A stretch of DNA of 64,000 bases from Anaerolineae bacterium (lineage in GTDB: Bacteria > Chloroflexota > Anaerolineae > UBA1429). The notes under the pieces are model-generated. The model was given only the letters and a program-made list of their open reading frames with translations, was not told the DNA's origin and did no database searches. Shown here piece by piece: positions 5,102 to 28,529 of this stretch (positions are counted from its first letter, which is position 1; each line of letters opens with the position of its first letter). Location: contig OY776562.1 of the NCBI GenBank assembly GCA_963675785.1, positions 64,001 to 128,000 on the forward strand, read 5' to 3'. A program made the position numbers and the translations under genes.

Positions 5102-5191
5102 TGGCGGAGGAGGTGGGATTCGAACCCACGGTAGCGCAAGCGCTACAACGGTTTTCGAGACCGCCCCATTCGACCACTCTGGCACCCCTCC
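5102..5191 (-). tRNA. tRNA-Ser(CGA)
   Basis: GGAGGGG...CCTCCGCCA acceptor, anticodon arm GCGGT-CT-CGA-AA-ACCGT, long variable arm, GGTTCGAATCC; CCA encoded. Confidence 0.95.
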
Positions 5192-5646
5192 GCGGGGTCG
5201 CGCCGCAATGACGCGAAAAAGGCATCCATGATCTCCTTAACTTCGTCTTCCAGAACGCCCGCAGTTATCTGAAGGCGGTGGTTGAGCCAGGGAGATCGCA
5301 CCAAGTCGTAAACGGACCCAGCGGCGCCTGTCTTGGGATCACGCAAAGCGAACACCAATCGGTCGAGCCGAGCATTGACCATGGCACCGGCACACATGCT
5401 GCACGGTTCTAGTGTGCAAAAGAGTGTGGCACCATTCAATCGCCAAGAGCCCAGCGTTTCTCCGGCCTGGCGCAAGGCCAATATCTCGGCATGCGCCGTG
5501 GGGTCGGTTAGCTGTTCCTTGCGGTTACAGCCTCTGCCAATTACCTGATCATCCTTGACGACCACAGCACCCACGGGGATTTCCCCCGCTTGTGCCGCTT
5601 CTTGTGCTTGTTGGATAGCCAGGCGCATCCAGTGTTCATCTTGCAT
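5143..5646 (-). CDS. tadA: tRNA adenosine(34) deaminase
   Basis: GEIPVGAV, DPTAHAE, TLEPCSMC, DPKTGAAGS, LNH; likely start MQDEHWM at 5646. Confidence 0.93.
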   Translation of the reverse strand: MQDEHWMRLAIQQAQEAAQAGEIPVGAVVVKDDQVIGRGCNRKEQLTDPTAHAEILALRQAGETLGSWRLNGATLFCTLEPCSMCAGAMVNARLDRLVFALRDPKTGAAGSVYDLVRSPWLNHRLQITAGVLEDEVKEIMDAFFASLRRDPAEGCQSGRMGRSRKPL

Positions 5647-5656
5647 AAGCGGGAGG

Positions 5657-5730
5657 ATTATAGCACAGATAGAATGCACCGACAAAGCAAGTAGGGGCGC
5701 TTTGACAGCACCCGGCCACCGCACTAGAGT
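5657..5730. promoter_or_regulatory. Divergent sigma70 promoters for tadA-tRNA(Ser) and rlmD
   Basis: Minus: TTGTCG-17-TATAAT with extended TG (5685-5657). Plus: TTGACA-17-TAGAGT (5702-5730). Confidence 0.6.
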
Positions 5731-5752
5731 TTGACTATTCAGGTATAAGGAG

Positions 5753-6991
5753 ATGCACGCAATGGTGCAGATTAGATTAGATGCTCTGGCCCACGGCGGT
5801 GATGCGATTGGCCGTCTAGATGGCAAAGCTGTTTTTGTACCCGGCGGCCTTCCGGGAGAGTTGGTCGAGGTCGAGATTATCGAGGAGCATAAGCGATTCT
5901 CCTCCGCGCATCTGCTCAATGTGTTGGAGGCCTCGACCGATCGAGTCGAGCCGCCTTGTCCTTATTACGGCGTCTGTGGTGGTTGCCAACTTCAGCATCT
6001 GAGCTACCCCGCACAGCTTGCGGCTAAGCACAAGTTGGTGGTTGAGCAATTTACGCGCATTGGCAAGATTGACGATGCTCTGGTGCATCCGGTGTTGGGG
6101 ATGGAGAATCCCTGGGCGTATCGCAATCATGTGCAGCTTTCTGTGACCGCTGAGGGTGCGCTGGGCTACCAAAAACGCCAGAGCAACGAGGTGGTTGCCG
6201 TGGAAGCTTGCCCACTGCTCCATCCTTTGCTGGCCGAACTGTGGGATGAGTTGGAAATTGACCCCACGGCTGTGGCGCGGGTGATTTTTCGCGCTGGCGT
6301 GAACACGGGTGAACAGATGCTGGTGTTTGAGGGGGTGGATGAAGATCTGCCCGAGTTCGAGATGGATGTGCCCCTTTCTGTGGTGTGGGTGGCGGCAAAT
6401 GGCGCAGAGCAGGTTCTGGCCGGTGAGAACTATTTCTGCGAAGAGATCGCTGGCTATCGCTTTCAGGTGTCGGCGCAGTCCTTCTTTCAGGTGAACACGG
6501 CTCAGGCCGAGGTATTGGTGGATGTGGTGCGGCGCTATGCCGCTCTTCAGCCGGGTGATGCGCTGCTGGATGCTTATTGTGGCGTGGGTTTGTTTAGCGT
6601 GTGTCTCAATGAAGCTTTGGGGGCGATTAGCGCCATCGAGATAGATGATTCCTCTTTTAACGACGCCCTGGTAAACCTGGGGCAGCTGCCAGAAGAGCTC
6701 GATATTGCTTTGATTCAGGGGGCGGTTGAGGATGTTGTGATTGAAGGAGAGGCACACTGCGATGTGGCCATCGTCGATCCGCCTCGGGCGGGTTGTGAGC
6801 TATCTGTACTGCAGGCACTGGCAATCTCTGGTGCTCGTCGTATTGTTATGGTTTCTTGCGATCCGGCGACGCTGGCCCGTGATGTGGCCCGCTTGGAGGA
6901 ATTGGGCTATCAGTTTATCGAAGCCCAGCCAATAGACATGTTTCCGCAGACGGCGCATGTGGAGACTGTGGCCTTGATGCTGATGAAATAG
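5753..6991 (+). CDS. rlmD: 23S rRNA (uracil-5)-methyltransferase RlmD/TrmA family with TRAM domain
   Basis: TRAM N-terminus, CPYYGVCGGC Fe-S motif, SFFQVN, DPPRAG, VSCDPATLARD, DMFPQTAHVE. Confidence 0.93.
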   Translation: MHAMVQIRLDALAHGGDAIGRLDGKAVFVPGGLPGELVEVEIIEEHKRFSSAHLLNVLEASTDRVEPPCPYYGVCGGCQLQHLSYPAQLAAKHKLVVEQFTRIGKIDDALVHPVLGMENPWAYRNHVQLSVTAEGALGYQKRQSNEVVAVEACPLLHPLLAELWDELEIDPTAVARVIFRAGVNTGEQMLVFEGVDEDLPEFEMDVPLSVVWVAANGAEQVLAGENYFCEEIAGYRFQVSAQSFFQVNTAQAEVLVDVVRRYAALQPGDALLDAYCGVGLFSVCLNEALGAISAIEIDDSSFNDALVNLGQLPEELDIALIQGAVEDVVIEGEAHCDVAIVDPPRAGCELSVLQALAISGARRIVMVSCDPATLARDVARLEELGYQFIEAQPIDMFPQTAHVETVALMLMK

Positions 6992-7114
6992 AGAATCTCT
7001 TAATATTCCGTCTATAAATGGGATATATGATACTAGACTAGGTTGCAGAATAATTTCTGAACCTAGTCCGACAGGTGAGTTGCGTTAGGTGCTATGCAGA
7101 TAAGGGATGGGAGT

Positions 7115-8191
7115 ATGTCGCAGAGTGAGATAGATCTGCTAAGGAACAAGCACACAGAGCTGATTGATATTGTCACAAAGAGAGTTCAGACTGATTTCCC
7201 AGAAGATATCGATCTGATTGGTATTTGCGGTTCTTTTCTTACAGACGATTTCTACGAAAAGTCAGATCTAGACTTGCTGGTGGTGCCGAACAATGAGCGG
7301 GGTTGGGGATTTACCTCTTGTTTTGTTCTGGATGGTATTGGTTATGATCTTTATGGCACATCTTGGAAAAAACTTGAAAAGATGGCCTGCTATGACGACA
7401 TGTTCGTATCACATGTTATTGATGTGGATATCGTTTACTGCAGAGATTCTGAATGTATGGAACGTTTTCAACAGTTACGGAGCCAAGCACTCGGCATCAT
7501 CAACGGTCCGATGACGCCTCAAATTCTGCAAAAAGCCAAGACGCATCTGGAGAGTGCCATATCAGCCTATGGCCGCTTGATGTTGGAGGATAAACTTGGC
7601 GCCGTTCGCCAGTATTCTGGTGATGCCCTTTATCATTTGACTAACGCAGTGTGTTGTATGAACCACAGTTACTTTAGAAGGGGAGTCAAACGTCAGCTGG
7701 AAGAAATGTTGGCGATGGAACAGGTTCCTGACCATTTCAAAGAATACTTTGATGGTGTTATGCATGCCAGAACTGTGGCAGAGATCAAGGAAGCAACAAA
7801 GAGATTGCTTCAAAGCGTCAACTCACTGTACGACACGATTTCTAGTGAGTTGCTCGATATAGCGGTCCCCGCAAAAGATGATTTGCGTGGGACATATGAA
7901 GAGATCTGGTCGAATTGGAAGAACAAGATTCATTACGCGGCAAAGCATGGTGACGTACTGCTCGCTTTTGCGACAGGGGTCAGCTGCCAGGATTTCTATA
8001 ACGAGATGCAAAAGGAGCACGGAACTGCATTCATCGATCTAATGGAGCATTTTCAAGCGGATGCACTCGATACTTTTGCCAATGCTTTTGAAGAGGCGAT
8101 GGAACTCTACCGACAGGAGTATGAAAAGTTGGGGATGAGGGTGCTAGAGTATAGATCCGTCGATGCGTTTCGGAAGGATTATCTTGGCTGA
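7115..8191 (+). CDS. Nucleotidyltransferase domain protein (Pol-beta fold with helical C-terminal domains)
   Basis: GICGSFLTDDFYEKSDLDLLV (GS...DxD) motif. Confidence 0.75.
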   Translation: MSQSEIDLLRNKHTELIDIVTKRVQTDFPEDIDLIGICGSFLTDDFYEKSDLDLLVVPNNERGWGFTSCFVLDGIGYDLYGTSWKKLEKMACYDDMFVSHVIDVDIVYCRDSECMERFQQLRSQALGIINGPMTPQILQKAKTHLESAISAYGRLMLEDKLGAVRQYSGDALYHLTNAVCCMNHSYFRRGVKRQLEEMLAMEQVPDHFKEYFDGVMHARTVAEIKEATKRLLQSVNSLYDTISSELLDIAVPAKDDLRGTYEEIWSNWKNKIHYAAKHGDVLLAFATGVSCQDFYNEMQKEHGTAFIDLMEHFQADALDTFANAFEEAMELYRQEYEKLGMRVLEYRSVDAFRKDYLG

Positions 8192-8260
8192 GGAACACAT
8201 GTGCAGGGCTGGGATAGGTTGACGCAATACTTTTCTACTAGCCACATCAATCAGGGTTTT

Positions 8261-8425
8261 GGTGCCGAAGTATTGCTAGGGTCTTTTGCGATGTTGACGC
8301 TTGTTCGTAGGGTGGCGCGTTTAGGCATGGGCCATCGTTTTATCGAGATTCAGTCAATAGACATGGTCCCGCAAACGGCGCACGTAGAGAAAGCAGTATT
8401 GATGTCACGGAACCTGTCTTCTTGA
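8261..8425 (+). pseudogene. Degenerate duplicate of the rlmD 3' end (copy 2)
   Basis: Encodes GHRFIEIQSIDMVPQTAHVEKAVLMSR vs rlmD GYQFIEAQPIDMFPQTAHVETVALMLMK; nucleotide similarity to about 6830-6991. Confidence 0.85.
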
Positions 8426-8525
8426 CACTCGAAATACAAGTTCTCCGACTTTTGGATAAGAAGCAGTAGTTTTCCTGATATATCAATAATTAAGTAAACA
8501 TATATGACGGCAACAGGATAATAAA

Positions 8526-8912
8526 GTGAAAAACTATACACAGGTCTATGTTATGAACAGCTTCGAAGCTGCTGACACATATTGCAGAGCTTTCGGAGGA
8601 GAGGTAACATTTGAGATAAAAAACGAGGCCGGGGACGCATTTGCGCATTGCGAGTTGTCTGTGAGCGGCGAACCTTTTCTTGCTTTGGCCGAAGCGGCAG
8701 AACCATATGACGTAAGTCTGATTCATAGAGAAAGATGGCAGACAATGACTTTCAATGCTTTTGAATTGGGGAGTGAAGCGGCTGTCAGGAACGCATTAAG
8801 CGTTTTGAGCGAAGGCGGTGTTGTTATTGAGCCAATCCATGAATTACCCTGGAGCAAATGCTGCGCGACGGTTATAGATAAATATGGGGTATGCTGGTGG
8901 ATAGCAATATAA
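8526..8912 (+). CDS. VOC/PhnB (glyoxalase-like) protein
   Basis: Y..AFG, H.EL, LSEGG.V..P....PWS.....V.DKYGV.W. Confidence 0.85.
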   Translation: MKNYTQVYVMNSFEAADTYCRAFGGEVTFEIKNEAGDAFAHCELSVSGEPFLALAEAAEPYDVSLIHRERWQTMTFNAFELGSEAAVRNALSVLSEGGVVIEPIHELPWSKCCATVIDKYGVCWWIAI

Positions 8913-9000
8913 CGACAGAAACGGTTTCGGCTTGAATAAGTCGGTTAGACAAATAACAGTTTTTCGGGGACATTAGCTTATTTTTCAGGAGTATAGGATT

Positions 9001-9417
9001 GTGGTTGAAATAAGGTATGTTAAGAAACGGATAAGGATTTCTGGTTCAGTCTCGATAAGCATCTGGATGAAAAAGAATATGAGAACAAGGTGAATACAAA
9101 AAGGGGTATGACTGTCGGAGGATAATCAGCCGATAGGATTACTTCGGTATAATCTTTTCTGGGATAACACTCCGTTCTGTACTTTGTTATATATAGACGG
9201 GAATTACCGGAGAAAAGGCTATGGTCGAATGCTTATGGGATTCTGGGGAAAAGATATGAGATTGCGGGGGTATGGAATGATATTGGCTTCTACACAGGTC
9301 GATGAAGGGGCGCAGCATTTCTACAGAAAACTGGGTTATAAAGATTGCGGCGGAGTCATAGTGGATATTCCCGGCTATGAACAACCTATGGAATTATTCT
9401 TGAGCAAGGCGTTGTGA
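9001..9417 (+). pseudogene. Frameshifted GNAT acetyltransferase
   Basis: Pieces VVEIRYV / DKDFWFSLDKHL / IGLLRYNLFWDNTPFCTLLYI..YRRKGYG..FYRKLGY are joined only through frameshifts near 9028 and 9108. Confidence 0.75.
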
Positions 9418-9444
9418 CTGGTTTGAAATTGCAGAGTTGTTTGA

Positions 9445-9668
9445 ATAACAGTAAAAAAGGCAAGAAAACTTAGAAACGGGCTTTTAATTGCAGGCTTTGT
9501 AATTATGTTATTGGCTTATGTTTATGAACCCCTGATAATTGTTGGTGCCTTGGTGACATTCTCCTGTCTTATTCCTCATTTTCTGTATAACAAATGCCCT
9601 CATTGCGGAAAGCAGCTTGGCAGGACGAAGGAGATTTCTGTCAGCATTGCGGTGGACGCATCAACTAA
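9445..9668 (+). pseudogene. Small membrane zinc-ribbon protein, start degraded and frameshifted
   Basis: Two hydrophobic helices, KCPHCGKQLGR, then EGDFCQHCGGRIN-stop in a shifted frame. Confidence 0.65.
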
Positions 9669-9690
9669 AAGTTCCAGTTTGCCGGCGTGG

Positions 9691-9797
9691 ATATGTTTTC
9701 TTATACCTGTTTTTCCGTTTACATATTATCTTATACGAGTAGTTTCGGTGAATATGTTAGCGTATACGTGTGATATTTCTGATATGTTAGGATATAC
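9691..9797. repeat. Four degenerate direct repeats, 30-31 bp period
   Basis: Core AYATRTTWNNNTATAC at 9691, 9721, 9752, 9782. Confidence 0.75.
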
Positions 9798-9822
9798 CTA
9801 TGACATCCGACCTGTGGTTTCA

Positions 9823-9876
9823 AGCCATGTGGAGATAGTAGTTCTGATGACGAGAAGGGGCTCTGAGAGCCAATAG
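9823..9876 (+). repeat. rlmD C-terminal att-like copy 3
   Basis: AGCCATGTGGAGATAGTAGTTCTGATG... encodes SHVEIVVLMTRR, matching rlmD HVETVALM only from the HVE codons onward. Confidence 0.7.
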
Positions 9877-9979
9877 TAGATTAATTTGAGAATCTTGATT
9901 TGATAACCCTTGTTCCCCCCAATAGGATGTTCTTATGTAATATTGACATAATGCATTGCAATATTGAAAGGAACCCTAT

Positions 9980-10351
9980 ATGAAAGAGTCCAACGCAAAG
10001 GCACCCAAAAAGACCGACGGCGAGGACGCGGTTCTTGAAAAGATCACCGCAATGCCGGAACCTTACCGCTCTATGGGCGAGCGCCTCCACAAGCTCATTC
10101 TGAGCACCGCACCAACACTCAAACCCAGAGTGTGGTATGGCATGCCGGGGTATGCAAAGACTAAGGATAGCCCGGTCCTCTGCTTCTTTCGTTCTGATAA
10201 ATACATGACCTTTGGCCTTACTGATAAGGCGAACTTTGCTCTTGAAGAAGGTGCGCTCCACCAACTCCTTGCCTCTTCGTGGTTTTTTACAGAGCTGGAT
10301 GAAGCAACTGCGGCCAAGATTGCAGATATTGTACGCAAAGCCACAAGTTGA
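9980..10351 (+). CDS. DUF1801 (YdhG-like) protein
   Basis: P.L.PRVWYGMPGYA, CFF; GAAAGGAA RBS. Confidence 0.8.
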   Translation: MKESNAKAPKKTDGEDAVLEKITAMPEPYRSMGERLHKLILSTAPTLKPRVWYGMPGYAKTKDSPVLCFFRSDKYMTFGLTDKANFALEEGALHQLLASSWFFTELDEATAAKIADIVRKATS

Positions 10352-10547
10352 GGGCGCGCTGCAAGAAACGTTTTTTCCTGGATAACCAAGTATGCGCCCA
10401 AATGGATTGACCAAGGCGGATTATCTTTTCCCCGTATTTGTTGTGAAACGCCAGCCATGGTTACATGGTTTTATCGCTGTAAACAAGTGACCTTGTGTCG
10501 CGAAGAAAAGGCGGCTAGTTTTTTATCCGTTAGAGGAGAGTTTCACG

Positions 10548-10958
10548 ATGGAAAAGCAACCTGCGAATGACGAAAGATCTCCGTCTCAGCTAATCGATGA
10601 GCGAATTGAGGAATTAGGTGATTGGCGGGGGCAGATGCTCTCCAAGATACGAACCCTGGTCAAAGAAGTCGATCCGGAGGTAGTCGAGGAGTGGAAATGG
10701 CGAGGAACCCCTGTGTGGTCTGACGATGGAATGATATGTACTGGAGAGACTTATAAGAATGCTGTCAAAATGACTTTCGCCAAGGGAGCATCATTAGAGG
10801 ATCCCACGCATCTTTTCAACGCCAGTTTGGACGGGAATGTCAGAAGGGCCATTGATTTTCACGAGGGGGACACACTGGACGAGGAGGCGCTTAAGGAACT
10901 AATCTGTGCCGCCATAGCCCTAAACAAGTCCAATCGTAAGGCTTCTCGTAAAGGGTGA
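10548..10958 (+). CDS. DUF1801 (YdhG-like) protein
   Basis: DWRG, EEWKWRGTPVW, KMTFAKGASL.DP..LFNASL.GN.RRAID. Confidence 0.88.
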   Translation: MEKQPANDERSPSQLIDERIEELGDWRGQMLSKIRTLVKEVDPEVVEEWKWRGTPVWSDDGMICTGETYKNAVKMTFAKGASLEDPTHLFNASLDGNVRRAIDFHEGDTLDEEALKELICAAIALNKSNRKASRKG

Positions 10959-11075
10959 GTTTTTCCGTCAATAGGGGTTCGTGCCTGCTTAGGTTGATAC
11001 TGAGAGCGTGCCGATAAACTTCTGCGCATATGAATTTCTAGAATTCAGAGGCTTTTTTAGAAAGTTACTCTATCG

Positions 11076-11465
11076 CCTTCGCGCGAAATTGCTTTGGATG
11101 CCGAGGTCATTGAGACCATCAAGCACGTGCTTGCAGCCCATACCACGCCCTTTGTGGCGTGCAAAACTTGGACAACCGACGCCTTTTACCGCGAGACGCC
11201 GGATATGATTACCTATCGCAAAGAAGAGGGCTGCTCTGTTGTCGAGATGGAGTGCGCCACCATGGCCGCAGTGGCCAGGTTTCGTGGGGTTCACTTTGGG
11301 CAACTTCTCTACAGTGGCGATATCCTGACCGATTACGCCAACTATGATGAGAGGGATTGGAGCAAGAACCTGACCGCCAGGCAAAAACTATTCCACCTGT
11401 CCCTAGCCGTTATTGGAGAACTGGCCAAACATGAGGAGATAAACGATGCTGACTCTGACGCATGA
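11076..11465 (+). pseudogene. 5'-truncated nucleoside phosphorylase (PNP/UDP family)
   Basis: KTWTTDAFYRET and VVEMECA motifs present; N-terminal half absent. Confidence 0.75.
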
Positions 11466-12120
11466 CCTGGCACAGCGCTATCCTGGGGCGGCTGTTGGCC
11501 TTTTGGCGATGCACGATGTGGTGAATGCTGCTGCTCATGAAAAGCTGGATGAAATCCGTGGCGAGATTGAGCGTTCATTACGAGAAAAGTATGGCGCTAT
11601 GTCTCGCAACGCGCTCAAGGCCTTGTATCCCATGGATGTGTATGTAGCTTACTACAAGGCCTTTGGTTATAGCTATCATGTCCTCTCTCAAGTGGAATCG
11701 ATTATGAAGGGCAAGTTGATCCCCAATGTTTCCTCATTAGTAGAAGCTATGTTCATGGCTGAACTCAAGAACATGCTCTTGACCGCTGGTCATGATTTGG
11801 ACAAGCTTGCGGAGCCGTTACTGTTGGCTTTATCGACAGGGGAAGAATGTTTTACCGCCTTGAGCGGCAAAGAGGTATCCACTGTGGTGGGCGATATGAT
11901 GATTAGCGATAGCGAGGGCGTCATTTCCAGTATCTTGCGCGGCCCCGACGCTCGGACCAGCATTGGTCCTAAAACCACGCGCGTGCTCTATGTGGTCTAT
12001 GCGCCGCCTACTATCGAGGATTCGGTGCTCTATAGCCATCTTGATGACATCGAAAGCTATGTACGTCTTTTGGGTGAGCCAGTTATGGACTTCAAGCACG
12101 TCTTGCGCGCTGCTCGATAA
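11446..12120 (+). CDS. Stand-alone B3/B4 (PheRS-beta editing-like) domain protein
   Basis: Y.AYYK.FG, LVEAMFMAEL, AGHDLD, GDMMISD..G.ISS. Confidence 0.8.
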   Translation: MLTLTHDLAQRYPGAAVGLLAMHDVVNAAAHEKLDEIRGEIERSLREKYGAMSRNALKALYPMDVYVAYYKAFGYSYHVLSQVESIMKGKLIPNVSSLVEAMFMAELKNMLLTAGHDLDKLAEPLLLALSTGEECFTALSGKEVSTVVGDMMISDSEGVISSILRGPDARTSIGPKTTRVLYVVYAPPTIEDSVLYSHLDDIESYVRLLGEPVMDFKHVLRAAR

Positions 12121-12171
12121 CAAGGGTGCCCCATCTATTTTACTATCCTATGAACGATGGCAGACATCGAA

Positions 12172-12741
12172 TTAGGATAAATCCATGATGCTGTTTGTCA
12201 TCAACTTTTCGGCTAACTCTGCCATACGTTCTGGGGATTCTTGCATACCGTTTTCAAACCAACGGCGCAGCATTGCCACACAGCCAAAGGTCACAAAGTC
12301 ATAATAGTATTCATAGTATTCTTCTTTACCGTTCCCAAAGAGCTTCCGCCATTCGCTTTGGTTCTGCGGACGACCTCGCTCGATGATCTGGTTTAGAAGC
12401 CTTGTTTCTCGTGCGTGAAAGATGGCAATAAAAAGATCTGAATTTGCGGCTATGTATTGAAACAGATCAAATAGTGCTGACATCCAAAGAATCTGTGACT
12501 GCGTCTTGTATTTCCCCAAAATGGCAGTGAAATCCTCTACGACCTCTTCCTCAGTTTGTTCAAAAAGATCATAGATATCCTTATAGTGCAGATAAAAAGT
12601 CCCCCGATTGATATCAGCAAGTTCAGTAAGCTCGCTTACCGAAATATCCTTTAAATTTTTCTTCATCAGCAGCTGTGTCAAGGCCTGCCGAATCCTCGCG
12701 TTCGTTTTACGAATGCGACGGTCATCATTTGCCTTTTTCAT
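12172..12741 (-). CDS. TetR/AcrR regulator
   Basis: DRRIRKT...ISVSELTELADINRGTFYLHY; divergent from the ABC genes. Confidence 0.9.
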   Translation of the reverse strand: MKKANDDRRIRKTNARIRQALTQLLMKKNLKDISVSELTELADINRGTFYLHYKDIYDLFEQTEEEVVEDFTAILGKYKTQSQILWMSALFDLFQYIAANSDLFIAIFHARETRLLNQIIERGRPQNQSEWRKLFGNGKEEYYEYYYDFVTFGCVAMLRRWFENGMQESPERMAELAEKLMTNSIMDLS

Positions 12742-12902
12742 GGCGAAATCTTTTCCTTCTTGCACAACTGATGGAGAGTTTGTTGATTTTCCGACAAATG
12801 TCCGATGTCTCAATACTTGAGGTTTTTCTTATCCCCTACTATAATAGACAGCTGACTAAAAATCAACGAGTGGTTAATATCTTGCAAGAAGGATGTGTTG
12901 TA

Positions 12903-13604
12903 ATGAGCTTTATCACGCTTGATGAAGTTACAAAGCATTACAGAATGGGCGAAGTGATAGTCAAGGCTGCAGATGGCGTAAGCTTTCAGATAGAAAAAGG
13001 TGAATTAGCTGTTGTGCTTGGTCCGAGCGGGGCTGGGAAAACAACAGTGCTCAATATGCTTGGTGGCATGGATACCTGCGATGGTGGACACATTGTGGTT
13101 GATTCCATGGACATTAGTTCGCTAAACGCCAAGCAACTTACCGTTTTCCGGCGCAAAGATATTGGTTTCGTGTTTCAGTTTTACAACCTAATTCCCAATC
13201 TTACAGCACTGGAAAATGTGGAACTCGCCTCTCAGATCTGTGAGAATCCTTTGGATTCTGCCGAGATATTGGCAGAAGTGGGACTGCACGACAGGACGGA
13301 TAACTTTCCATCTCAACTCTCTGGTGGAGAGCAACAACGTGTCGCGATTGCCCGCGCTTTGGCAAAGAACCCCAAACTATTGCTTTGTGACGAACCAACT
13401 GGTGCGCTTGACGATGATACAGGCAAAGTCGTCCTCTCACTGCTTCAGAAAACGAGTCATGAGAAGGGAATGACCGTCATTATTATCACCCATAACCAGG
13501 CCATTACTCCAATGGCAGATCGTGTCATCCATATCCGAAACGGCAAAGTGGATGATATTCTTGTCAACAAAGCCCCTGTTCCTATCGCTCAGATAGAGTG
13601 GTAA
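12903..13604 (+). CDS. ABC ATPase (LolD/MacB type)
   Basis: [24 protein letters not shown]. Confidence 0.93.
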
Positions 13605-13609
13605 GCTCC

Positions 13610-16600
13610 ATGACCAAGAATGCATTTTGGAAAGATAGTCTACGGCAAGTGCGGGCTACACTAAATCGTTTCTTGGCTATTCTTGTCATAACGGCCTTGG
13701 GAGTTGCTTTTTTTGCCGGGCTTAGAGCATCTGGCCCCGACATGAGAGCTACGGCCTCAGCGTATTACGACGAATTGAATTTCATGGACGTCAGGTTGCT
13801 CTCCACCATCGGTTTCGATGAGAATGATGTGGATGCCGTAAGAAACACGCAAGGTGTTCTCGGTGTGATGCCAGCCTATTCCTATGATGCGATTGTCGAG
13901 CTATCGAGTGAGAACTTGACCATTCGGTTGGACTCTTTGAGTGAAGAACCTAATACAGAAAACGATATCAACGCTCCCAATGTAGTAGAAGGGCGTATGC
14001 CGGAAAGTAGCGGCGAATGTCTTGTCGATCCCCACTTTATAACGCTCTCTGGCTATCAAATCGGGGATACCGTGAACTTGGTCTCAGGTACGGCTACGCT
14101 CATTTCGGATACTTTGAAAACAGACGCATTCCAGATTGTGGGAATTGCAGAGAGCCCTTTGTATATTTCCAATGAACGGGGATCTAGTGATATTGGCAGT
14201 GGCAAGATGGACGCCTATGTTATGGTGCCTGCAGGTGATTTCACTTTGCCAGTCTATACAGAGATATATGTGACAATCGAGAATGAGGCCGGGCGTTCTC
14301 GATTTGAGGATACGTTTACGGATTTACTAGAGCCAATCGAAACCGCTTTGAAAGATGTCGGAGAGCTTCGAGCAAGTGTGCGTTATGCTGAAATCCAAGA
14401 CGAAGCAACCCAAGAACTGGATGACGCTAAAGCGGAACTCAACGATGGATGGGCGGAATACAATCAAAGTAAAGCGGATTTCGATACACAGATTGCTGAT
14501 GCACAGCAACAACTTGATGATGGATATGTCCAATACAACCAAGGTCTGGCAGAATATGCGGCGGGCCTCAGTGCACTTGAGGCAGCAAAAACAGATACGG
14601 AAGCGCAGTTTTCCCAAGCTGAGGATCAATTAGCACAGGGACAGACAGAATATGAAAGCGGGCTTGGCGCCTATAACGATGGCAAGGTCGTATATGATGC
14701 ACTGGTTGATGCATTAGCAGCTGGTAACACGCCTGAAGCTATTGCGACTATTAGTGGATTGATCAGCGAGATGCAGGATGATGGCGCCGATCTTGCGATG
14801 GTGCTCTCTGCTTATGTGGACAATCCTGATGATGCTACGAGTATAGCGGCAGCACAGGGAGCAGTTGCAGAGTTTGGCAATGTGCTCGAGCAAAGCAAGC
14901 AACAGCTCGATGAAGTAGCGGGCACGCTTGATGAAAAAAGCGTCGAATTGGAACAAGCACGCCTCGATGCTCAAAGCCAATTGGATGAATCCCAGGATCA
15001 GCTCGATGAATCATCCAGTCAGCTCAACGATCTAAAAGAAACCCTTGACAAAAATCGCGAGGAACTCGAACAGTCGCGAATTGAGGGGCAAGATGGGTTG
15101 GCTGAAGCCAAAGAGAGACTTGAGGAAGCAGCGCAGGAGATAGCGGATGGCGAAGAGCAGTTAGCTGAGCTTGAAATGCCAGAATGGTACATCCTCGATC
15201 ATGATACCAACATTGGCTTTGCCAGCTACAAAGAAGACGCAGAGCGTATCGATACGCTCAGTGTTGTTTTCCCCCTACTTTTCTTCCTGGTGGCGATACT
15301 CGTATCCATGACCTCGATGACACGCCTTGTGGAGAGCGATCGTCCTCATATCGGCACCCTCAAAGCATTGGGCTATAGCAATGGCAAAATCGCCTCGCGC
15401 TATCTGCTTTATGCCCTGGCAGCCTCATCTTTGGGTAGCGGGATTGGTTTGATTGTAGGTTTTAACCTTTTCCCCCGAGTGATTTTCAACGCTTATAGTG
15501 TGCTCTACAACTTGCCGCCGATCATGGCTGATTTTAACCTCAAATTTGCGGTTATTTCGACAGTAGCTGCAGTTTCATGCGCAACTCTGCCAGCCTGGTT
15601 TATCTGTGTGCGGGCATTAAGAGGTACCTCTGCTGAGATGATGCGCCCCGCCGCACCGAATAGTGGCAAACGTATTTTGCTTGAGCGCATCACGCCGCTT
15701 TGGAAGATGCTGAACTTTTCTCAAAAAGTGGCGATGCGAAATCTCTTTCGCTACAAAAAGCGTTTTTTCATGACGATATTCGGTGTTGCTGGCTGCACGG
15801 CACTCATGTTTGCTGGATTTGGGCTGCGCGATGGTATCACGACGATCGAACCCAAGCAGTACGAAAACATTCAGCGCTATGATTTACAGATCGACTTTGA
15901 AGGGGATGCCCCAGCGGAAGAGAAGCAATCTCTGGATGAAGAAATAACAAGCAGTGCAGGCATTTTGTCAGAAACCGAATTATTCCAAGAGTCAGTGGAT
16001 TTTTTGAGTGATGGACAGCTCAAATCAACAACGCTGATTGTGCCCGAAGTGATATCTGAATTTTCAGATTTTATCCATCTTCAAAATCGCGAGACACAAG
16101 AAACACTTGTTCTCTCGGATGATTCGGTCATTATTACAGAAAGACTGTCCGTATTGTTTGATTTGCAGGTGGGAGATACTTTCGTCCTTCGGGATGGCGA
16201 TGGACAAGAAGCGACAGTCCAAGTGGGCGGCATCGCGGAATACTATCTGTATCACTATATTTACATGTCCCCGTCACTGTATCGCTCATCTTTTGGAAAA
16301 GAGCCTGTCGCGAATCAGATGTTGTGTCTCCTTCGTGACCCTGCGGACGACAATAGCGCGCTTGCTACGAGTTTGCTGGAACAATCTTGCGTAACCTCTG
16401 TGACGCTCACTGCGAATGTAAGAGCTTCATTCGAAAACATTGTCAATTCCTTGCACTATGTCGTTTGGGTTCTGATCATATCTGCTGCGATGCTTGTGTT
16501 CGTCGTGCTCTTTAGTTTGACCACGATTAACTTGGAGGAACGTGGTCGAGAGTTGGCGACGATCAAGGTGCTTGGTTTTTATGACTGGGAGCTTGCTGCT

Positions 16601-16852
16601 TATATATATCGTGAGAACAGTCTCTTGACTATCATAGGCACTGTTTTGGGGCTTTTACTTGGCATAGTCCTTCAGCGTTACATCATTACGACGATGGAAA
16701 CAGACGTGCTCATGTTCAGCCGCGATCTCTTGTGGCAAAGCTATGTCTATTCGGCTGGCCTGACCATCTTTTTTGCTGCTGTAGTAAATCTTGTCATGTT
16801 TCGGCACATCTCCAAGATTGATATGGTCTCATCGCTCAAGAGCATTGAATAG
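13610..16852 (+). CDS. FtsX-like ABC permease with long coiled-coil extracellular segment
   Basis: Two FtsX modules (IGTLKALGY, LATIKVLGF); heptad-rich centre. Confidence 0.9.
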   Translation: MTKNAFWKDSLRQVRATLNRFLAILVITALGVAFFAGLRASGPDMRATASAYYDELNFMDVRLLSTIGFDENDVDAVRNTQGVLGVMPAYSYDAIVELSSENLTIRLDSLSEEPNTENDINAPNVVEGRMPESSGECLVDPHFITLSGYQIGDTVNLVSGTATLISDTLKTDAFQIVGIAESPLYISNERGSSDIGSGKMDAYVMVPAGDFTLPVYTEIYVTIENEAGRSRFEDTFTDLLEPIETALKDVGELRASVRYAEIQDEATQELDDAKAELNDGWAEYNQSKADFDTQIADAQQQLDDGYVQYNQGLAEYAAGLSALEAAKTDTEAQFSQAEDQLAQGQTEYESGLGAYNDGKVVYDALVDALAAGNTPEAIATISGLISEMQDDGADLAMVLSAYVDNPDDATSIAAAQGAVAEFGNVLEQSKQQLDEVAGTLDEKSVELEQARLDAQSQLDESQDQLDESSSQLNDLKETLDKNREELEQSRIEGQDGLAEAKERLEEAAQEIADGEEQLAELEMPEWYILDHDTNIGFASYKEDAERIDTLSVVFPLLFFLVAILVSMTSMTRLVESDRPHIGTLKALGYSNGKIASRYLLYALAASSLGSGIGLIVGFNLFPRVIFNAYSVLYNLPPIMADFNLKFAVISTVAAVSCATLPAWFICVRALRGTSAEMMRPAAPNSGKRILLERITPLWKMLNFSQKVAMRNLFRYKKRFFMTIFGVAGCTALMFAGFGLRDGITTIEPKQYENIQRYDLQIDFEGDAPAEEKQSLDEEITSSAGILSETELFQESVDFLSDGQLKSTTLIVPEVISEFSDFIHLQNRETQETLVLSDDSVIITERLSVLFDLQVGDTFVLRDGDGQEATVQVGGIAEYYLYHYIYMSPSLYRSSFGKEPVANQMLCLLRDPADDNSALATSLLEQSCVTSVTLTANVRASFENIVNSLHYVVWVLIISAAMLVFVVLFSLTTINLEERGRELATIKVLGFYDWELAAYIYRENSLLTIIGTVLGLLLGIVLQRYIITTMETDVLMFSRDLLWQSYVYSAGLTIFFAAVVNLVMFRHISKIDMVSSLKSIE

Positions 16853-16917
16853 TGGAGTATACTGGGGTATCATCGCGACTTGTTGGCTTGTTGTGCTCAT
16901 AAAGGGATGAAAAGAAG

Positions 16918-19245
16918 ATGGTCAAGTTTGCTGCGCAGTGTCTCGATGGCATCTATCGGATGGCTTATATGCCGCAGAAAGAATATGCTTCTTGTGCGAT
17001 CGAGTTCAATACCATGGCTGCGCTTGAGGAGCACGATTGTTCAATCATCCCTGCTACGGTTCCTGGTAATTCCGAGCTCGACCTGCAGGCCGCTGGCCTC
17101 ATCGATGAACCTTTTTACGGCAGCAATATCATCGAGCTGCAAAAGTACGAGAACTATCATGTGTTCTATTCCAAAACCTTTGACTATACGCCGAACGGAA
17201 GCGATCCTCAGCTTTACTTTGAGGGCATCGACACCTTCGCTGATATCTATTTGAACGGCGTATTGCTTGGCCATACTGAAAACATGCTCATCCCTCACCA
17301 AATGAGAGCCACAAGCACGGTAGAGGGTGAAAACGAGCTGTTCGTCCATATCTACCCGACTTGCATCAAGGCTCGCAAGCATGATCTCGGCGCGGCGGAT
17401 AATGCTATGCGCTATACCTATGACTCGCTACTGGTGCGTAAGGCGGCCCACATGTTCGGCTGGGATATCATGCCGCGCGCCGTCTCGGCTGGCCTCTGGC
17501 GTTCTGTGTCGCTGCTCTCTGTTCCTAACCACTATGTTCGCGAAGCTTATTTGATGACTAACCGCCTCTCTGCTGACCAAGATCGAGCTTACTGTGAACT
17601 CTTTTATCGATTCGAGATCGGCGATGATCCCATCAAAGGATATTCTTTCACCCTGACAGCCGATTGTGGCGAATCCCATGTTCAGGTTAGTGATGTGCTC
17701 TGGTTTACCCAGGGCAAGCTGCGTTTCGAAATTGAGAATCCCAAATTATGGTGGCCAGTGGGGCGAGGCGACCAGAACCTCTACACCGTCACCATCACCC
17801 TCTTGTTCGAGGGAGCGCCTGTGGCTAGCGACACATTCCGCACGGGCATCCGCACCACTAAGCTGCGCCGCAGTGAGATTCTCAATGAAAACGGCGAGGG
17901 CGAATTCTGCTTTGTCATCAATGGTGAACGGATTTTCATCAAGGGTTCCAACTGGGTACCGGCCGATGCTTATCATTCTCGCGATCGAGAGCGCATTCCG
18001 GCCATGCTCGATTTGTGGACTGAAATTGGCTGCAACGCGTTACGTAGCTGGGGCGGTGGCGTCTATGAGGACGACCTTTTCTACGACATCTGTGACGAAA
18101 AGGGGATCATCGTTTGGGCCGACTTTGCCATGGGCTGCGGATCATATCCTCAGACCGAGAACATGCAAAAAGCTCTATATCACGAGGCCGAGGTCATTAT
18201 CAAAAAGCTGCGGCACCACCCTTCTATTTGTTTGTGGGCAGGCGATAATGAGAACGATTACTTTATGGCTTACAACTATGGCACCGATCCGAACCTCAAT
18301 CTGTTGACTCGTAAGGTGTTGCCCGAAGCCATCCGTCGTCACGACCCGATACGGCCATTTCTCCCCAGTTCTCCCTATGTATCGCCTGCGGCTTGGACCG
18401 CTCATGATAGCAAGTTATTGCCAGAGAACCATCTTTGGGGGCCGCGAGACTATTTCAAAAGCGATTTCTACCGCCAAGCATCGGCATTGTTTGCGAGTGA
18501 GATGGGCTACCATGGCTGCCCTTCGCCTCGGTCGGTGAGGCGCTTTTTGCCGCCCGAGAGCGTCTGGACCGACTATTGCGATAACGCCGACTGGCTAACT
18601 CACGCCGCCTCGCCGGACTTGGATGGTCCCTACGCCTATCGCAATGAGCTGATGCGCAAGCATGTCAAGACTTTGTGGGGTATCGATCATTGTGAGAGCT
18701 TGGATCAGTTCGCACGCGCTAGTCAGATATCCCAGGCCGAGGCTAAAAAGTATTTCATCGAGCGCTTTCGCGCGAAAAAGTGGCATCGCACTGGCGTCAT
18801 TTGGTGGAACATCATCGATGGGTGGCCCCAATTCTCGGATGCCGTCGTCGATTACTATTTCACGAAAAAGCTGGCTTTTTCCTACATCAAGCGTTCGCAG
18901 AATCCTCTTTGTTTTATGATGGATGAGCCACAGGATGAAGAGCTACCTTTGGTAGCTAGCAACGATACGCGTTTCGATCAGGATACGACCTATCACGTTT
19001 TTACACTAGAGGATGGCGCCAAACATCTCGTCGACTCTGGGAGAGTGTGCGTCAGAGCTGATTCAGCCCAATGTGTGAGCAGACTGCCCTATGATGGCTT
19101 GGCCCAGACTTTTTATTATATCGAGTGGGATAACGATCAGTATGCGGGGAATAATCACTTTTTAGCGGGTCGTCCACCATACGATTTAGTCTGGTACTTT
19201 GATATCATTCGCCGTCTGGGCTATGATCAGTTCGAGGGATTCTAA
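16918..19245 (+). CDS. Glycoside hydrolase family 2 (beta-mannosidase-like)
   Basis: FEGIDT, GWD, KGSNWVPAD, WGGG.YE, WAGDNE, FASEMG. Confidence 0.88.
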   Translation: MVKFAAQCLDGIYRMAYMPQKEYASCAIEFNTMAALEEHDCSIIPATVPGNSELDLQAAGLIDEPFYGSNIIELQKYENYHVFYSKTFDYTPNGSDPQLYFEGIDTFADIYLNGVLLGHTENMLIPHQMRATSTVEGENELFVHIYPTCIKARKHDLGAADNAMRYTYDSLLVRKAAHMFGWDIMPRAVSAGLWRSVSLLSVPNHYVREAYLMTNRLSADQDRAYCELFYRFEIGDDPIKGYSFTLTADCGESHVQVSDVLWFTQGKLRFEIENPKLWWPVGRGDQNLYTVTITLLFEGAPVASDTFRTGIRTTKLRRSEILNENGEGEFCFVINGERIFIKGSNWVPADAYHSRDRERIPAMLDLWTEIGCNALRSWGGGVYEDDLFYDICDEKGIIVWADFAMGCGSYPQTENMQKALYHEAEVIIKKLRHHPSICLWAGDNENDYFMAYNYGTDPNLNLLTRKVLPEAIRRHDPIRPFLPSSPYVSPAAWTAHDSKLLPENHLWGPRDYFKSDFYRQASALFASEMGYHGCPSPRSVRRFLPPESVWTDYCDNADWLTHAASPDLDGPYAYRNELMRKHVKTLWGIDHCESLDQFARASQISQAEAKKYFIERFRAKKWHRTGVIWWNIIDGWPQFSDAVVDYYFTKKLAFSYIKRSQNPLCFMMDEPQDEELPLVASNDTRFDQDTTYHVFTLEDGAKHLVDSGRVCVRADSAQCVSRLPYDGLAQTFYYIEWDNDQYAGNNHFLAGRPPYDLVWYFDIIRRLGYDQFEGF

Positions 19246-19333
19246 GCGACTTTTTCCGATTTCTGTTGAAACGATAAAAGGAGGAGAGTTGGATGAACAG
19301 CGCTCCTCCTTTTCTAATACGCGCGCTCTAGGT

Positions 19334-20254
19334 CTACTGTTGATCGATAAGTTTTATGGTGACAATATCCCCTTGCTCGCAGTGCCCGTCACTATCAAAA
19401 GTAACCTGCATGGGGAACCCTTCATAATAGACTCGTTCATCGGTGTCAAAATCTGTGACCACGATAAGACCACTCCAGTGTTGCATCATGTCATCGACGA
19501 AAAAGGGTGTGTCCCAATATTGAAATGGCCTGCAAATACGCCCCAAACCTTCCATACCGATCCCGTCGGATGCTGTGTCGCTGGGCTTTTTCACTGTGAC
19601 CACGTAAGCATCACTGGGCGTATAACCATCTTCAAAAGTGAGCTTGATGACAAAGGTGGCATCGGGAAAGGTAAGGGATACGACGCCGTCAGGGTATTTA
19701 TCCGTGATATCCACGTCAATCTGCCCTTTTTCGGCATAGTAGGGCAATTCCCAACTCATGTCCTCATCATCATTGGGTATAAATTGAACCAGGGTCTCCT
19801 CATTTAGAGGATTGCGCAAGTAGATGTCCTCTTGCGTGGTAACGACGAGTTGCAGGCTATTATCTTGGCTTTTCTCGATCTGATAGGCCAAGTTATCATT
19901 GTATCGCAGATCTATGGTAACTGCGCCATTCTCATCTGTTTCAAGTGGTGTACAACCTTGCTTGGCTGCGCCTGGCTCTGTGGGCAGGGTCCCTGGCTGA
20001 ATCAAAAAAACGAGATACGAGTCATCTTTATCTTCTGGATTGGTGAGGTTTGTCTGGATGGTCAATGTCGTATAGCCGAGTTCCTCGTTCACCTCGGCAT
20101 CATCATCTACTGCGTCGCTAATGGTTGTGGCTGTGGAAGAGACTGTCGCGTTCGTATTGCTTTGTGGCGTGATCGTAGGGTTTTGTTCTTTGGGAGAACA
20201 GCCCGCCAATAATAATGAAGTGATGAGCATAAATGTGAACAGGCTTTTTTTCAT
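19334..20254 (-). CDS. Acidic lipoprotein of unknown function
   Basis: Signal peptide with lipobox LAGC, T/S-rich linker. Confidence 0.75.
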   Translation of the reverse strand: MKKSLFTFMLITSLLLAGCSPKEQNPTITPQSNTNATVSSTATTISDAVDDDAEVNEELGYTTLTIQTNLTNPEDKDDSYLVFLIQPGTLPTEPGAAKQGCTPLETDENGAVTIDLRYNDNLAYQIEKSQDNSLQLVVTTQEDIYLRNPLNEETLVQFIPNDDEDMSWELPYYAEKGQIDVDITDKYPDGVVSLTFPDATFVIKLTFEDGYTPSDAYVVTVKKPSDTASDGIGMEGLGRICRPFQYWDTPFFVDDMMQHWSGLIVVTDFDTDERVYYEGFPMQVTFDSDGHCEQGDIVTIKLIDQQ

Positions 20255-20415
20255 GCGTCTTTCTCATGGCTTATTGCGGGGAATTGAGCCCCAGGTCGGA
20301 TAACCTTAACAATCTAGCATAGCCTTAACATTCCTTCAATAGTAATGGACATACAAAAGGTTTCATATAGAATCCAAACACTGCGATGATGGAACAACCA
20401 AGGAGGACGTGAAGA

Positions 20416-21303
20416 ATGACGCCAAGACTACAGCAGTGTGCCCAGCGCTTGTTCGACCTCTATTTACGAGACGCGCCCCGAGCGGCAGTGATTCATGATG
20501 CGGCCTTTGGCGAGTTAGCTCAGGCGATAGGACTTTTGGGACCGTTTGAATCGTTCCTGATTAACGATAGTGCTCAGACCGAAACAGCCGTCCAGTATAG
20601 TTTGGATGAAGCTTTTCCCACGCTCGTGTTGGTCGAGCCGAACAGCTATGTGAAGATGACCCTTTACAAGTGGTTGGATTTCAGCTTGGGCGCCCCACAT
20701 ATCGCCAACCTGAATGCGCCTTCCGCCATTTGTGTCTTTCCTCTTGAGAGCACCTATCGCATTTTCTCCTCGGATGCCGAGGCCGATGCTCGTGCCAAAG
20801 GGCAACTCTTGAGCGACCTTGAGGCAAACAGCGCTTATTCGGTGACCACCGAGAATGGCACATCTTTGCGTTTTATCTCGCGCCATTGGATCGACGATGG
20901 CTATGAGGTACTCACTGCACCCATCGAAAGCTCGGTCGAGGGCGTAATTGCGGTAGATGGTGCTCTCTTTTTCCAAAGGATCGATAGCACTCTTGAGTTC
21001 ATCATTGAGGCAGGTAAAATCGTCGACATCAAGCCGCGTGATGGGCGGGGGCATGAACTGGTAGAGCAGTACAAGCGGATGACAGCTTCTGATTTTCGAG
21101 ACCCCGTGAACATACAGTTAGCTGAGGTGGGCATTGGTTGCAACACTGGGGCCATCATCAGCGATTGTTTTATGGAAGCCGAGATGGTCTATGGCACCTG
21201 TCATTTCTGCTTTGGTAATAACGCTTGTTATGGGGGTGATAATCCCAGTGATTTTCATGGCGCTTCTGTGCTGATCAAATCTCCCGTTTTTACGCGCCTC
21301 TAA
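20416..21303 (+). CDS. M29 (aminopeptidase T)-like metalloenzyme, short
   Basis: LAEVGIGCN...E.E...GTCHFCFGNN..YGG.N.S.FH; AAGGAGG RBS. Confidence 0.6.
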   Translation: MTPRLQQCAQRLFDLYLRDAPRAAVIHDAAFGELAQAIGLLGPFESFLINDSAQTETAVQYSLDEAFPTLVLVEPNSYVKMTLYKWLDFSLGAPHIANLNAPSAICVFPLESTYRIFSSDAEADARAKGQLLSDLEANSAYSVTTENGTSLRFISRHWIDDGYEVLTAPIESSVEGVIAVDGALFFQRIDSTLEFIIEAGKIVDIKPRDGRGHELVEQYKRMTASDFRDPVNIQLAEVGIGCNTGAIISDCFMEAEMVYGTCHFCFGNNACYGGDNPSDFHGASVLIKSPVFTRL

Positions 21304-21319
21304 AAAGGAGTCTATTTCC

Positions 21320-21955
21320 GTGTTGAATGAACAGGGCTTTGATTTGTGGGCCGATGGTTTTGATGTGAGCGTTCAGTCAAGTGAAGAAGCCAATGCCTAT
21401 CCCTTTGCTGGTTATAAGGATGTGTTGAACGCCGTCTATCGGACTGTGCATACCAAAGGGGTGGCTCGCGTCTTGGATATTGGCTTTGGCACGGGTGTCT
21501 TGACCCAAAGGCTGTATGATGAGAGCTATGAGATCTATGGCGTCGATTTCTCTAGTCGCATGATTGAAATTGCCCAGGCCAAGATGCCTTGTGCCCATTT
21601 GTATCAGTATGATTTTTCTGAAGGGCTGCCGCCAGCACTGGATGGTTTGCAGTTTGATTTCATTATCAGCACCTATGCGTTGCACCATCTGAGTGATCCT
21701 CAAAAGGTTACTTTTCTAGAGTTATTGCGAGATCATTTAGCGAAGGATGGCCGCATTCTCATTGGCGATGTGGCCTTTGAAAGCCGGAACCTTTTGGAAG
21801 CCTGTCAGCGTCAAGCAGGGGAAGGCTGGGACTCGGACGAGATATATATCGTCCATGATGAACTAGCGAGCTACTATCCGGATGGAGACCTGTGTTTTCA
21901 GGCCTTTTCCCACTGTGCAGGCGTTATCGAATTGGGTCCCCGTGTAACGAGATGA
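21320..21955 (+). CDS. Class I SAM-dependent methyltransferase
   Basis: VLDIGFGTG, GVDFS..M, STYALHHL. Confidence 0.9.
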   Translation: MLNEQGFDLWADGFDVSVQSSEEANAYPFAGYKDVLNAVYRTVHTKGVARVLDIGFGTGVLTQRLYDESYEIYGVDFSSRMIEIAQAKMPCAHLYQYDFSEGLPPALDGLQFDFIISTYALHHLSDPQKVTFLELLRDHLAKDGRILIGDVAFESRNLLEACQRQAGEGWDSDEIYIVHDELASYYPDGDLCFQAFSHCAGVIELGPRVTR

Positions 21956-21956
21956 G

Positions 21957-22547: not shown

Positions 22548-22655
22548 TACTTGAGCGGTCTCTCATAGACGCGATGCCAGATCGACCTCGGAATACCATA
22601 TGTAGATCTCGCAGCAATCTTGCCCTTCCGCTTAAAGATTCGGCTTTTTGCCTAC

Positions 22656-22722
22656 TTGACAGGGTATTCGTTTTCTGACAAAATATGAACGAACGTTCAT
22701 TAACTAACTAACTAACTAACTA
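22656..22722 (+). promoter_or_regulatory. Promoter, palindromic operator and (TAAC)5 run upstream of tetR
   Basis: TTGACA at 22656; ATGAACGAACGTTCAT at 22685-22700; TAAC repeats at 22701-22722. Confidence 0.7.
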
Positions 22723-22740
22723 TCTTGGTGAGGAGAATGA

Positions 22741-23382: not shown

Positions 23383-23401
23383 TGGCAGCAGGAGTTTCAG
23401 A

Positions 23402-24408: not shown

Positions 24409-24567
24409 ATGGTATCGATCTGGTCGTTTTCTGTCTGGCACTGTGTTTAGGCACATAGTAAAATGCTATATGAGTTTGATTGGGAGGTGGCAATTGCAAA
24501 TGCCACCTCTTATTCTAGATAAGCACAATATACAACGAATGCCAGTGATTATTTTCGAGGGCAGAGT

Positions 24568-28473: not shown

Positions 28474-28507
28474 GGAGCATATTCTGATACAATATGCTCC
28501 TCTTTTT
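28474..28507 (+). terminator. Probable intrinsic terminator
   Basis: GGAGCATATT-loop-AATATGCTCC followed by TCTTTTT. Confidence 0.6.
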
Positions 28508-28529
28508 GCTCCCTTCGGAGGATACTCGG

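Follow-up and report, generated by a model that had tools for sequence, protein, structure and literature searches.

Does a row of three copies of one gene's 3′ end in the chromosome of an Anaerolineae bacterium represent a working system of gene capture, or is it what older insertions of a known kind have left behind? The row lies in a 64,000-nucleotide (nt) stretch of DNA (hereafter the window), which corresponds to bases 64001-128000 of a single-contig, 3.2-Mb host chromosome (contig OY776562.1; 94.8% complete by marker count), and begins at the end of rlmD, the gene for the 23S rRNA U1939 methyltransferase of the RumA family. A sequence-only reading had placed three copies of the rlmD tail here, the last with a similarity that begins at codons for His-Val-Glu (HVE), with two modules of 1425 bp and 1445 bp between them, and had taken them for a previously undescribed, integron-like capture system without a recombinase of its own. 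We found all three tails where that reading had put them, on the plus strand and beginning at 6956, 8381 and 9826, with independent tests in agreement, and the spacings from copy 1 to copy 2 (1425 bp) and from copy 2 to copy 3 (1445 bp) were confirmed. The explanation we prefer, to which we assign a probability of about 0.6, is that of a fossil array of attachment (att) sites, left by elements that inserted at the HVE codons of rumA/rlmD and were later stripped by deletion.

The three tails have the same orientation, all differ after HVE, and each has its own stop. A degenerate pattern matched the window three times against 0.09 matches expected, and none of 100 shuffles reached three. This pattern had been built from the three copies themselves, and each copy was therefore also tested independently. 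Copy 2 was recovered with the rlmD end as query both by blastn (8260-8390, 74% identity over 137 columns, E 1.5e-15) and by tblastn (37 amino acids (aa) at 65%, E 2e-7), and a local alignment paired rlmD 6829-6965 with 8260-8390 across four small indels. The copy thus includes 121-127 nt (about 125) of decayed rlmD upstream of HVE, and this fragment was of Anaerolineae type and closest to the RlmD of the host itself, with 24 of 37 residues identical as against 19-22 for the next-best homologues. At the HVE core, copy 2 differed from copy 1 at two of nine bases. For copy 3 we built a tail matrix from 118 other Anaerolineae/Chloroflexota RlmD homologues and scanned the 3.2-Mb genome in six frames, whereupon only three sites scored at least as high as copy 3, namely rlmD, copy 3 itself and one unrelated site. 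Counted from the H codon on, copy 3 was identical to copy 1 at 9 of 9 and at 18 of 24 bases, and upstream of that codon no similarity to rlmD was found (identity at 2 of 12 and at 7 of 40 positions; the local score was reached in 552 of 1000 shuffles). The breakpoint of copy 3 is therefore at the HVE codons, as had been proposed. Copies 1 and 3 also have the perfect 10-nt repeat CATGTGGAGA in common. We found no fourth tail in the window, and across 6800-35500 the rlmD tails were the only repeat family.

The DNA between the outer tails stood out from the genome by composition. Across 7001-10000 the tetranucleotide correlation with the genome was 0.03-0.27 (genome mean 0.74, 1st percentile 0.28) and the guanine-plus-cytosine (GC) content was 0.42-0.45 (genome 1st percentile 0.451), and from about 10001 composition was again within the range of the genome. 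As only 7001-10000 was an outlier, we regard the 2.9 kb bounded by copies 1 and 3 as foreign DNA. Module 1, taken by itself, had a GC content of 0.45 and was a tetranucleotide outlier. Its nucleotidyltransferase, for which (as for its homologues) PF07827 was a precomputed assignment, was 58-68% identical to its best homologues, of which the named ones were from Clostridium. Its best genome loci were likewise from Clostridium or Clostridiaceae, and remoter relatives came from Gracilibacillus, Paenibacillus and other Bacillota; among 80 such loci, a single one belonged to a Chloroflexota metagenome-assembled genome, at 39% identity. The VOC protein of module 2 was 70-81% identical to other 128-aa proteins, the few named ones being from Clostridiales or Oscillospiraceae, and had no matches in plasmids or viral contigs. 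The acetyltransferase (GNAT) fragment resembled Enterococcus GNAT genes at 67-68% DNA identity, and when the whole insert was compared with plasmids, matches were confined to this fragment, in six Enterococcus records. Of the four genes in the modules only two are intact, the GNAT gene being truncated and the zinc-ribbon gene frameshifted. The RlmD protein, for its part, was 52-54% identical to its best non-self homologues, every named one of which was from Anaerolineae or Chloroflexi/Chloroflexota, in agreement with the earlier view that the host does not belong to the Bacillota.

Table 1. Features of the rlmD locus, with coordinates counted from the first base of the window
Feature	Position	Strand	Basis
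rlmD, 23S rRNA U1939 methyltransferase (RumA family), intact, 412 aa	5753-6991	+	Pfam TRAM and tRNA_U5-meth_tr
Copy 1, tail of the working gene, HVETVALMLMK and stop; left junction (attL-like)	6956-6991	+	Sequence reading, pattern and matrix scans
Module 1, one intact gene	6992-8259	+	Open reading frame, homologues, composition
Nucleotidyltransferase with kanamycin-nucleotidyltransferase-like C-terminal domain, 365 aa, intact	7094-8191	+	Weak Pfam Polbeta, NTP_transf_2
Copy 2, decayed rlmD 3′ fragment (8260-8380, four indels), then HVEKAVLMSRNLSS and stop from 8381	8260-8425	+	blastn, alignment
Module 2, four features	8426-9825	+	Open reading frames, profiles, homologues
VOC/PhnB-like gene, 128 aa, intact	8526-8912	+	Homologues
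GNAT acetyltransferase, C-terminal fragment only	9184-9417	+	Matches only the last part of profiles
Small membrane zinc-ribbon open reading frame, frameshifted	from 9505	+	Sequence reading
Weak periodic repeat of about 30 nt	about 9691-9812	+	Offset count
Copy 3, HVEIVVLMTRRGSESQ and stop; right junction (attR-like), possibly a displaced older tail	9826-9876	+	Pattern and matrix scans
Rest of the variable rlmD-rpsO interval, accessory genes, outside the repeat-bounded insert	9877-34985		Pfam scan, synteny

The surroundings of rlmD in related genomes place the array at the edge of changeable DNA. Synteny from rlmD to rpsO-pnp was kept in all three genomes of the family that we examined (G019, G020 and G008), with a gap from rlmD to rpsO of 28 kb in the host as against 3.5-10 kb in the three relatives, and the rlmD end therefore borders a variable region. 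The host interval and those of the relatives have hardly any genes in common; the exceptions, one nucleotidyltransferase (63%) and a partial NUDIX gene, are found in G008.

We compared the locus with other strains of the same organism. The window was almost fully present in six runs, of which four from three studies were compared (X12, X14, X16 and X17); runs X1-X11, which held 0.05-0.06 of the sampled words, were left out of the comparison of architecture. The arrangement of tails and modules was identical in all four runs. From X12, possibly the sample of origin, came a single contig that is identical over 5157-24900, and X14, X16 and X17, from the two other studies, carried single-nucleotide differences from the window (for example at five places in rlmD). 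Contigs of X14 bridged all three junctions, those of X16 the junctions of copies 2 and 3, and those of X17 the junctions of copies 1 and 3. As every junction was thus spanned in two or more of these other runs, the suspicion that the copies might be an assembly artefact was dispelled. An identical architecture in relatives, which had been named beforehand as speaking against serial capture, was thus found among near-identical strains, and its scope is those four runs. No joints at the HVE sites and no excised or empty forms were seen in the contigs of the four runs, contigs being prone to drop rare variants; the only joints seen were 10368/10577 and 10867/10942, both in X17. On the X17 contig, the 208 bases at 10368-10577, between two DUF1801 genes, were replaced by 76 others, which is a strain difference. 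On the best reading of these data, the array is now fixed and inert in the host species, with no sign of present activity.

We searched for an enzyme that might have built the array. Serine recombinases (PF07508, PF00239) had no matches in the host genome or among the open reading frames (ORFs) of the window, and tyrosine recombinases (PF00589) had only two host matches, at 1.19 and 3.05 Mb (G000:C1, 1191687-1192139 and 3054475-3054996). A Pfam scan of the 44 ORFs at 451-40505 found no integrase, relaxase, coupling protein or gene for a type IV secretion system or conjugation. The earlier remark that the site has no recombinase was thus borne out, and for serine recombinases it extends to the genome. 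Nor did the modules hold any recognizable backbone remnant of an integrative and conjugative element (ICE) or integrative and mobilizable element (IME), although their broken genes and small size would fit derivation from such an element by deletion. Across the class, a large serine recombinase was present in 64 of 201 sampled genomes.

Precedents for such an arrangement exist in print. The established part of the sequence-only reading, that serine-integrase ICEs and IMEs of Bacillota use the rumA 3′ end, agrees with PMC4120198, PMC4701971, PMC4735348 and PMC5704250. The vanG and ICE-r elements insert after the GA of a GAG codon that lies eleven codons before rumA ends, were seen in streptococci, Enterococcus and Roseburia, occur also in tandem, and have a left end that provides an in-frame extension and a right end at which a stop-less serine recombinase gene is fused to the last rumA codons (PMC4120198). 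The rumA ICEs have a single serine integrase, direct repeats of 2-21 bp and an attR inside the integrase gene (PMC4701971), and the tabulated attL of ICESluvan starts with the HVE codons (PMC4735348). Tandem arrays are explained by integration, by decay to a cis-mobilizable element (CIME) in which attL and attR survive, and by the accretion of a further element, and composites of CIMEs with an ICE are known to move (PMC5704250). Within the Chloroflexota, Dehalococcoides carries tandem islands behind ssrA with 20-bp repeats between them, some without an integration module and discussed as cis-mobilizable or fixed (PMC3146451). Our full-text literature search returned no report of such insertions at the HVE site of rumA/rlmD outside the Bacillota, the hits listed being all on Bacillota or on unrelated subjects.

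Set beside these systems, the array shows both likenesses and differences. With the rumA ICEs and IMEs (vanG elements, ICE-r, ICESp2905, ICESluvan and IME_SpnAP200_rumA) it has in common the target, that is, the HVE codons near the RumA/RlmD 3′ end, as well as exchanged C-terminal codons, short direct repeats at both ends, tandem occupancy and Bacillota-type cargo, and insertion at the GA of the GAG codon in HVE, about 10 codons from the stop, is as in the published definition of rumA elements (PMC4120198). It differs from them in that neither its right end nor the genome as a whole encodes a serine integrase and that conjugation or mobilization genes are absent, in units of 1.3-1.4 kb rather than tens of kb, in its Anaerolineae host, and in one junction that carries an extra rlmD fragment. 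Like the CIMEs and accretion products of ICESt1/ICESt3 in Streptococcus thermophilus (PMC5704250), its units are without recombination or transfer genes, stand between att-like sites and lie in tandem at one gene end, with both modules flanked by HVE sites and neither holding a mobility gene; those CIMEs, however, go with tyrosine integrases and other targets, whereas the array has no partner ICE or IME and its att sites are putative. The Dehalococcoides ssrA islands are likewise in a Chloroflexota host, in tandem downstream of a translation-apparatus gene that is present once, and separated by short direct repeats of the gene's 3′ end, some without an integration module, and serine recombinase chemistry has been proposed for them, as it is here for the rlmD array; they differ in the target ssrA, in the CcrB-like DsiB integrases that many encode, in 20-bp repeats of an RNA gene, and in being larger and strain-variable (PMC3146451). 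Integron cassettes and pdif modules are also short, mostly single-gene units in one orientation, bounded by sites and without a recombinase of their own, whereas the array has no attC-like hairpins and no adjacent integron integrase, its sites are copies of a coding-gene end, and it comprises two decayed units. As structures of the accretion and CIME type are in print, the array is of a known kind and not an undescribed capture system.

The preferred explanation would run as follows. Foreign DNA would have entered the chromosome at the HVE codons of rlmD (CAYGTNGAG), the site used by ICEs and IMEs with a single serine integrase, so that the three tails would be the left, internal and right junctions. 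Each integration would swap the last ~10 codons for a tail brought by the element and push the older tail downstream; by such a swap at each integration the gene would stay intact and tails would pile up behind it. The integrase and transfer genes would then have been lost by deletion, with two short CIME-like remnants and their Clostridia-type cargo left in place. Integration at HVE and heavy deletion afterwards would fit the sharp breakpoint, the 10-nt repeat, the exchange of tails, the foreign composition of the insert and the Clostridia-type origin of its cargo. That the HVE junctions are the work of a large serine recombinase, that the remnants come from larger elements by deletion, and the order of these events are inferences.

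Several results weigh against this explanation. Neither to the left of copy 2 nor to the left of copy 3, where published elements have it, did we find a remnant of a serine integrase, and no large serine recombinase was found in the six other genomes of the host family in the class sample, nor in G015 (a genome of the same family and another genus), G022 or G006. The native tail was not distinguishable by composition. In the Bacillota the cargo genes show no linkage to rumA, with rlmD near the nucleotidyltransferase gene at only one of 80 loci, itself without a repeated tail, and near the VOC gene at none of nine. Nor could a crossover at GA have created the part of rlmD that precedes HVE in copy 2. 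To accommodate it, an extra step would be needed, in which module 1 might have come in joined to a stretch of rlmD, for instance through Campbell-type homologous recombination.

Whether partial copies of the gene end occur elsewhere bears on this step. In G015 (L013, G015:C6, 2578-3928), an intact rlmD is followed by a 161-aa membrane ORF and then by a partial copy, which comprises 200 nt of the part of rlmD before HVE at 93% identity and is fused after HVE to an in-frame extension of 40-odd codons. Beyond the extension lies DNA of 37-45% GC that encodes radical-SAM and unknown proteins, and the contig ends inside it. The HVE codons differ between the two G015 copies, and the extension resembles, by eye, the long tail of the metagenome locus L130. 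The long target duplication of copy 2 is thus present again in a second genus. Two readings of its extent were given up: a longer copy 2 that would begin at about 8205 (MAFFT), the score of the extension being reached by 170 of 1000 shuffles, and, since that extension was not significant, a common left boundary of the host and G015 copies at a DPPRAGC motif.

A survey of the class with the last 83 RlmD residues as query, which is blind to short HVE tails of 10-16 codons, matched 347 of 401 genomes, among them 22 with at least two matches, including the host and G015. When the other 20 were rechecked, most of the second matches proved to be either a full-length second gene or a weak similarity to some other methyltransferase. 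Fragments of the rlmD 3′ end that stand alone and carry a stop of their own were found in G179 (three), G209 and G379, and one lay at a contig end in G044. The G179 fragments are on three contigs (L098, L099 and L100), each with its own HVE tail and stop, in a genome of 60-68% GC; no full-length match to the rlmD tail was found in G179, and neither this genome nor G209 had a large serine recombinase. Among 48 metagenome loci carrying IDMFPQTAHVE, one had a second HVE tail (L110, 28% GC), with tails at about 8024 and 9869 when rlmD is oriented forward, 1.8 kb apart; between them, by eye, are frameshifted remnants like an IstB ATPase of the IS21 type. Taken together, the cases in G015, G179, G209, G379, G044 and L110 lead us to regard partial copies of the gene end as rare but recurrent. 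Candidates set aside were a 61-nt, 74% match 5.3 kb downstream of rlmD at locus L145, taken as chance, and long open frames around rlmD in G037, G023, G373 and G082, which were upstream read-through, the tails being normal in all four.

These cases bring up an alternative in which no site-specific recombinase is needed and the 3′ end is replaced through homology: circular or linear DNA carrying an rlmD 3′ fragment and a passenger gene would recombine with rlmD by a RecA-type, Campbell-like event, each time adding a fresh gene end and pushing the older one downstream, where it decays. Copy 2, with 121-127 nt of Anaerolineae-type rlmD duplicated upstream of HVE, is what such events would leave, as are the 200-nt, 93% duplicate that flanks a one-gene module in G015, where the HVE codons also differ between copies, the isolated 3′ fragments in G179, G209, G379 and G044, and a decay that grows with distance, from the intact copy 1 through copy 2 at 74% to the bare tail of copy 3. 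The sharp breakpoint of copy 3 at the H codon and its perfect 10-nt repeat, however, fit a site-specific crossover and not homology, the duplicated fragments have different left ends from one genome to another, and the source of such circles is not known. We regard replacement through homology as the main rival to the preferred explanation, yet as an unlikely account of the whole array, and it may account for the arrival of module 1 only, as it would explain copy 2 and G015 but not copy 3. A bolder variant, which we consider rather more doubtful still, is that Anaerolineae have recombinase-less 3′-end replacement cassettes, small modules that carry a fresh rlmD 3′ end and are inserted by homologous recombination or by a recombinase acting in trans. 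After an ICE hit, each such insertion would give the gene a normal end again, with older ends moved downstream as on a conveyor belt, and the signature would be long target duplications such as that of copy 2 in the host and that of G015 (200 nt, 93%).

The capture system of the sequence-only reading, in which small non-autonomous modules would still be captured and released at HVE by a recombinase acting in trans, in the manner of integrons or pdif modules, has on its side that the modules are short units of one to three genes which share one orientation and have an HVE site at each boundary, that no recombinase is encoded in cis, and that composites of CIMEs and ICEs are known to move (PMC5704250). 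Against it stand the identical architecture in four of four runs without any joint that skips from one HVE site to another (in contigs, which can hide rare variants), the broken genes of module 2, the core of copy 2 with its two changed HVE bases, the genome with no serine and only two tyrosine recombinases, and the lack of a repeated hairpin site of the integron type; in addition, the cargo genes were not seen as HVE-bounded units elsewhere. We therefore think it very unlikely. That the modules are still moving was not upheld, given that two of four genes are broken, that copy 2 has diverged by 26% with indels and that no HVE joints were seen; nor was the novelty of an integron-like system, as accretion and CIMEs are in print and the locus (repeats of 6800-35500; ORFs of the window) has neither attC hairpins or inverted repeats of the integron type nor an IntI integrase. 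What stands of that interpretation is the copies, their breakpoints, the modules, the host and the Bacillota background; what falls is novelty and present mobility. Chance similarity or an assembly artefact, for which one could cite that copy 3 alone is a 24-nt match at 75%, is extremely improbable, with only three sites in 3.2 Mb reaching the copy 3 score in an independent matrix scan, copy 2 matching at E 1.5e-15, and the junctions bridged in contigs of other runs.

Other features of the locus may be described briefly. Directly before copy 3 are four units of about 30 nt, of the form ATATGTT..TATAC. At offsets of 30 and 61, self-identity over these units was 0.46-0.47, the 99th percentile of shuffles being 0.44, and Tandem Repeats Finder returned no rows for 6900-10100; the units could be candidate protein-binding sites at the end of an element. 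Upstream of rlmD are tadA and a gene for tRNA-Ser, and the open frame of tadA overlaps with its 3′ end ~49 bases of the tRNA gene on the same strand (5102-5191 and 5143-5652). Downstream of the insert runs a ~25-kb series of accessory genes, mostly on the plus strand, with two DUF1801 genes, a TetR gene with ABC/FtsX, a GH2 gene, five GNATs, NUDIX and HAD genes, as well as an ANT(6)-like gene (28494-29402), an APH-like gene (29403-30335) and a nucleotidyltransferase (30981-31841); none of the resistance-like genes of the interval was above NCBIfam cut-offs. Of the 233 positions of the PNP_UDP_1 profile, a 123-aa ORF at 11094-11465 covers only 124-212; it is probably a gene fragment and is overlapped by an ORF with a B3_4 domain (11446-12120).

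If the reading of the array as a fossil series of att sites is correct, the HVE site of rumA/rlmD, known as a hot spot in the Bacillota, would receive foreign DNA in the Chloroflexota too, and genes of Clostridia type would have crossed the phylum boundary into an Anaerolineae chromosome through it. What is new would then be the host phylum, the array itself being a relic that calls for no new mechanism. The point that could lead further is the duplicated fragment of the target gene, which recurs in a second genus.

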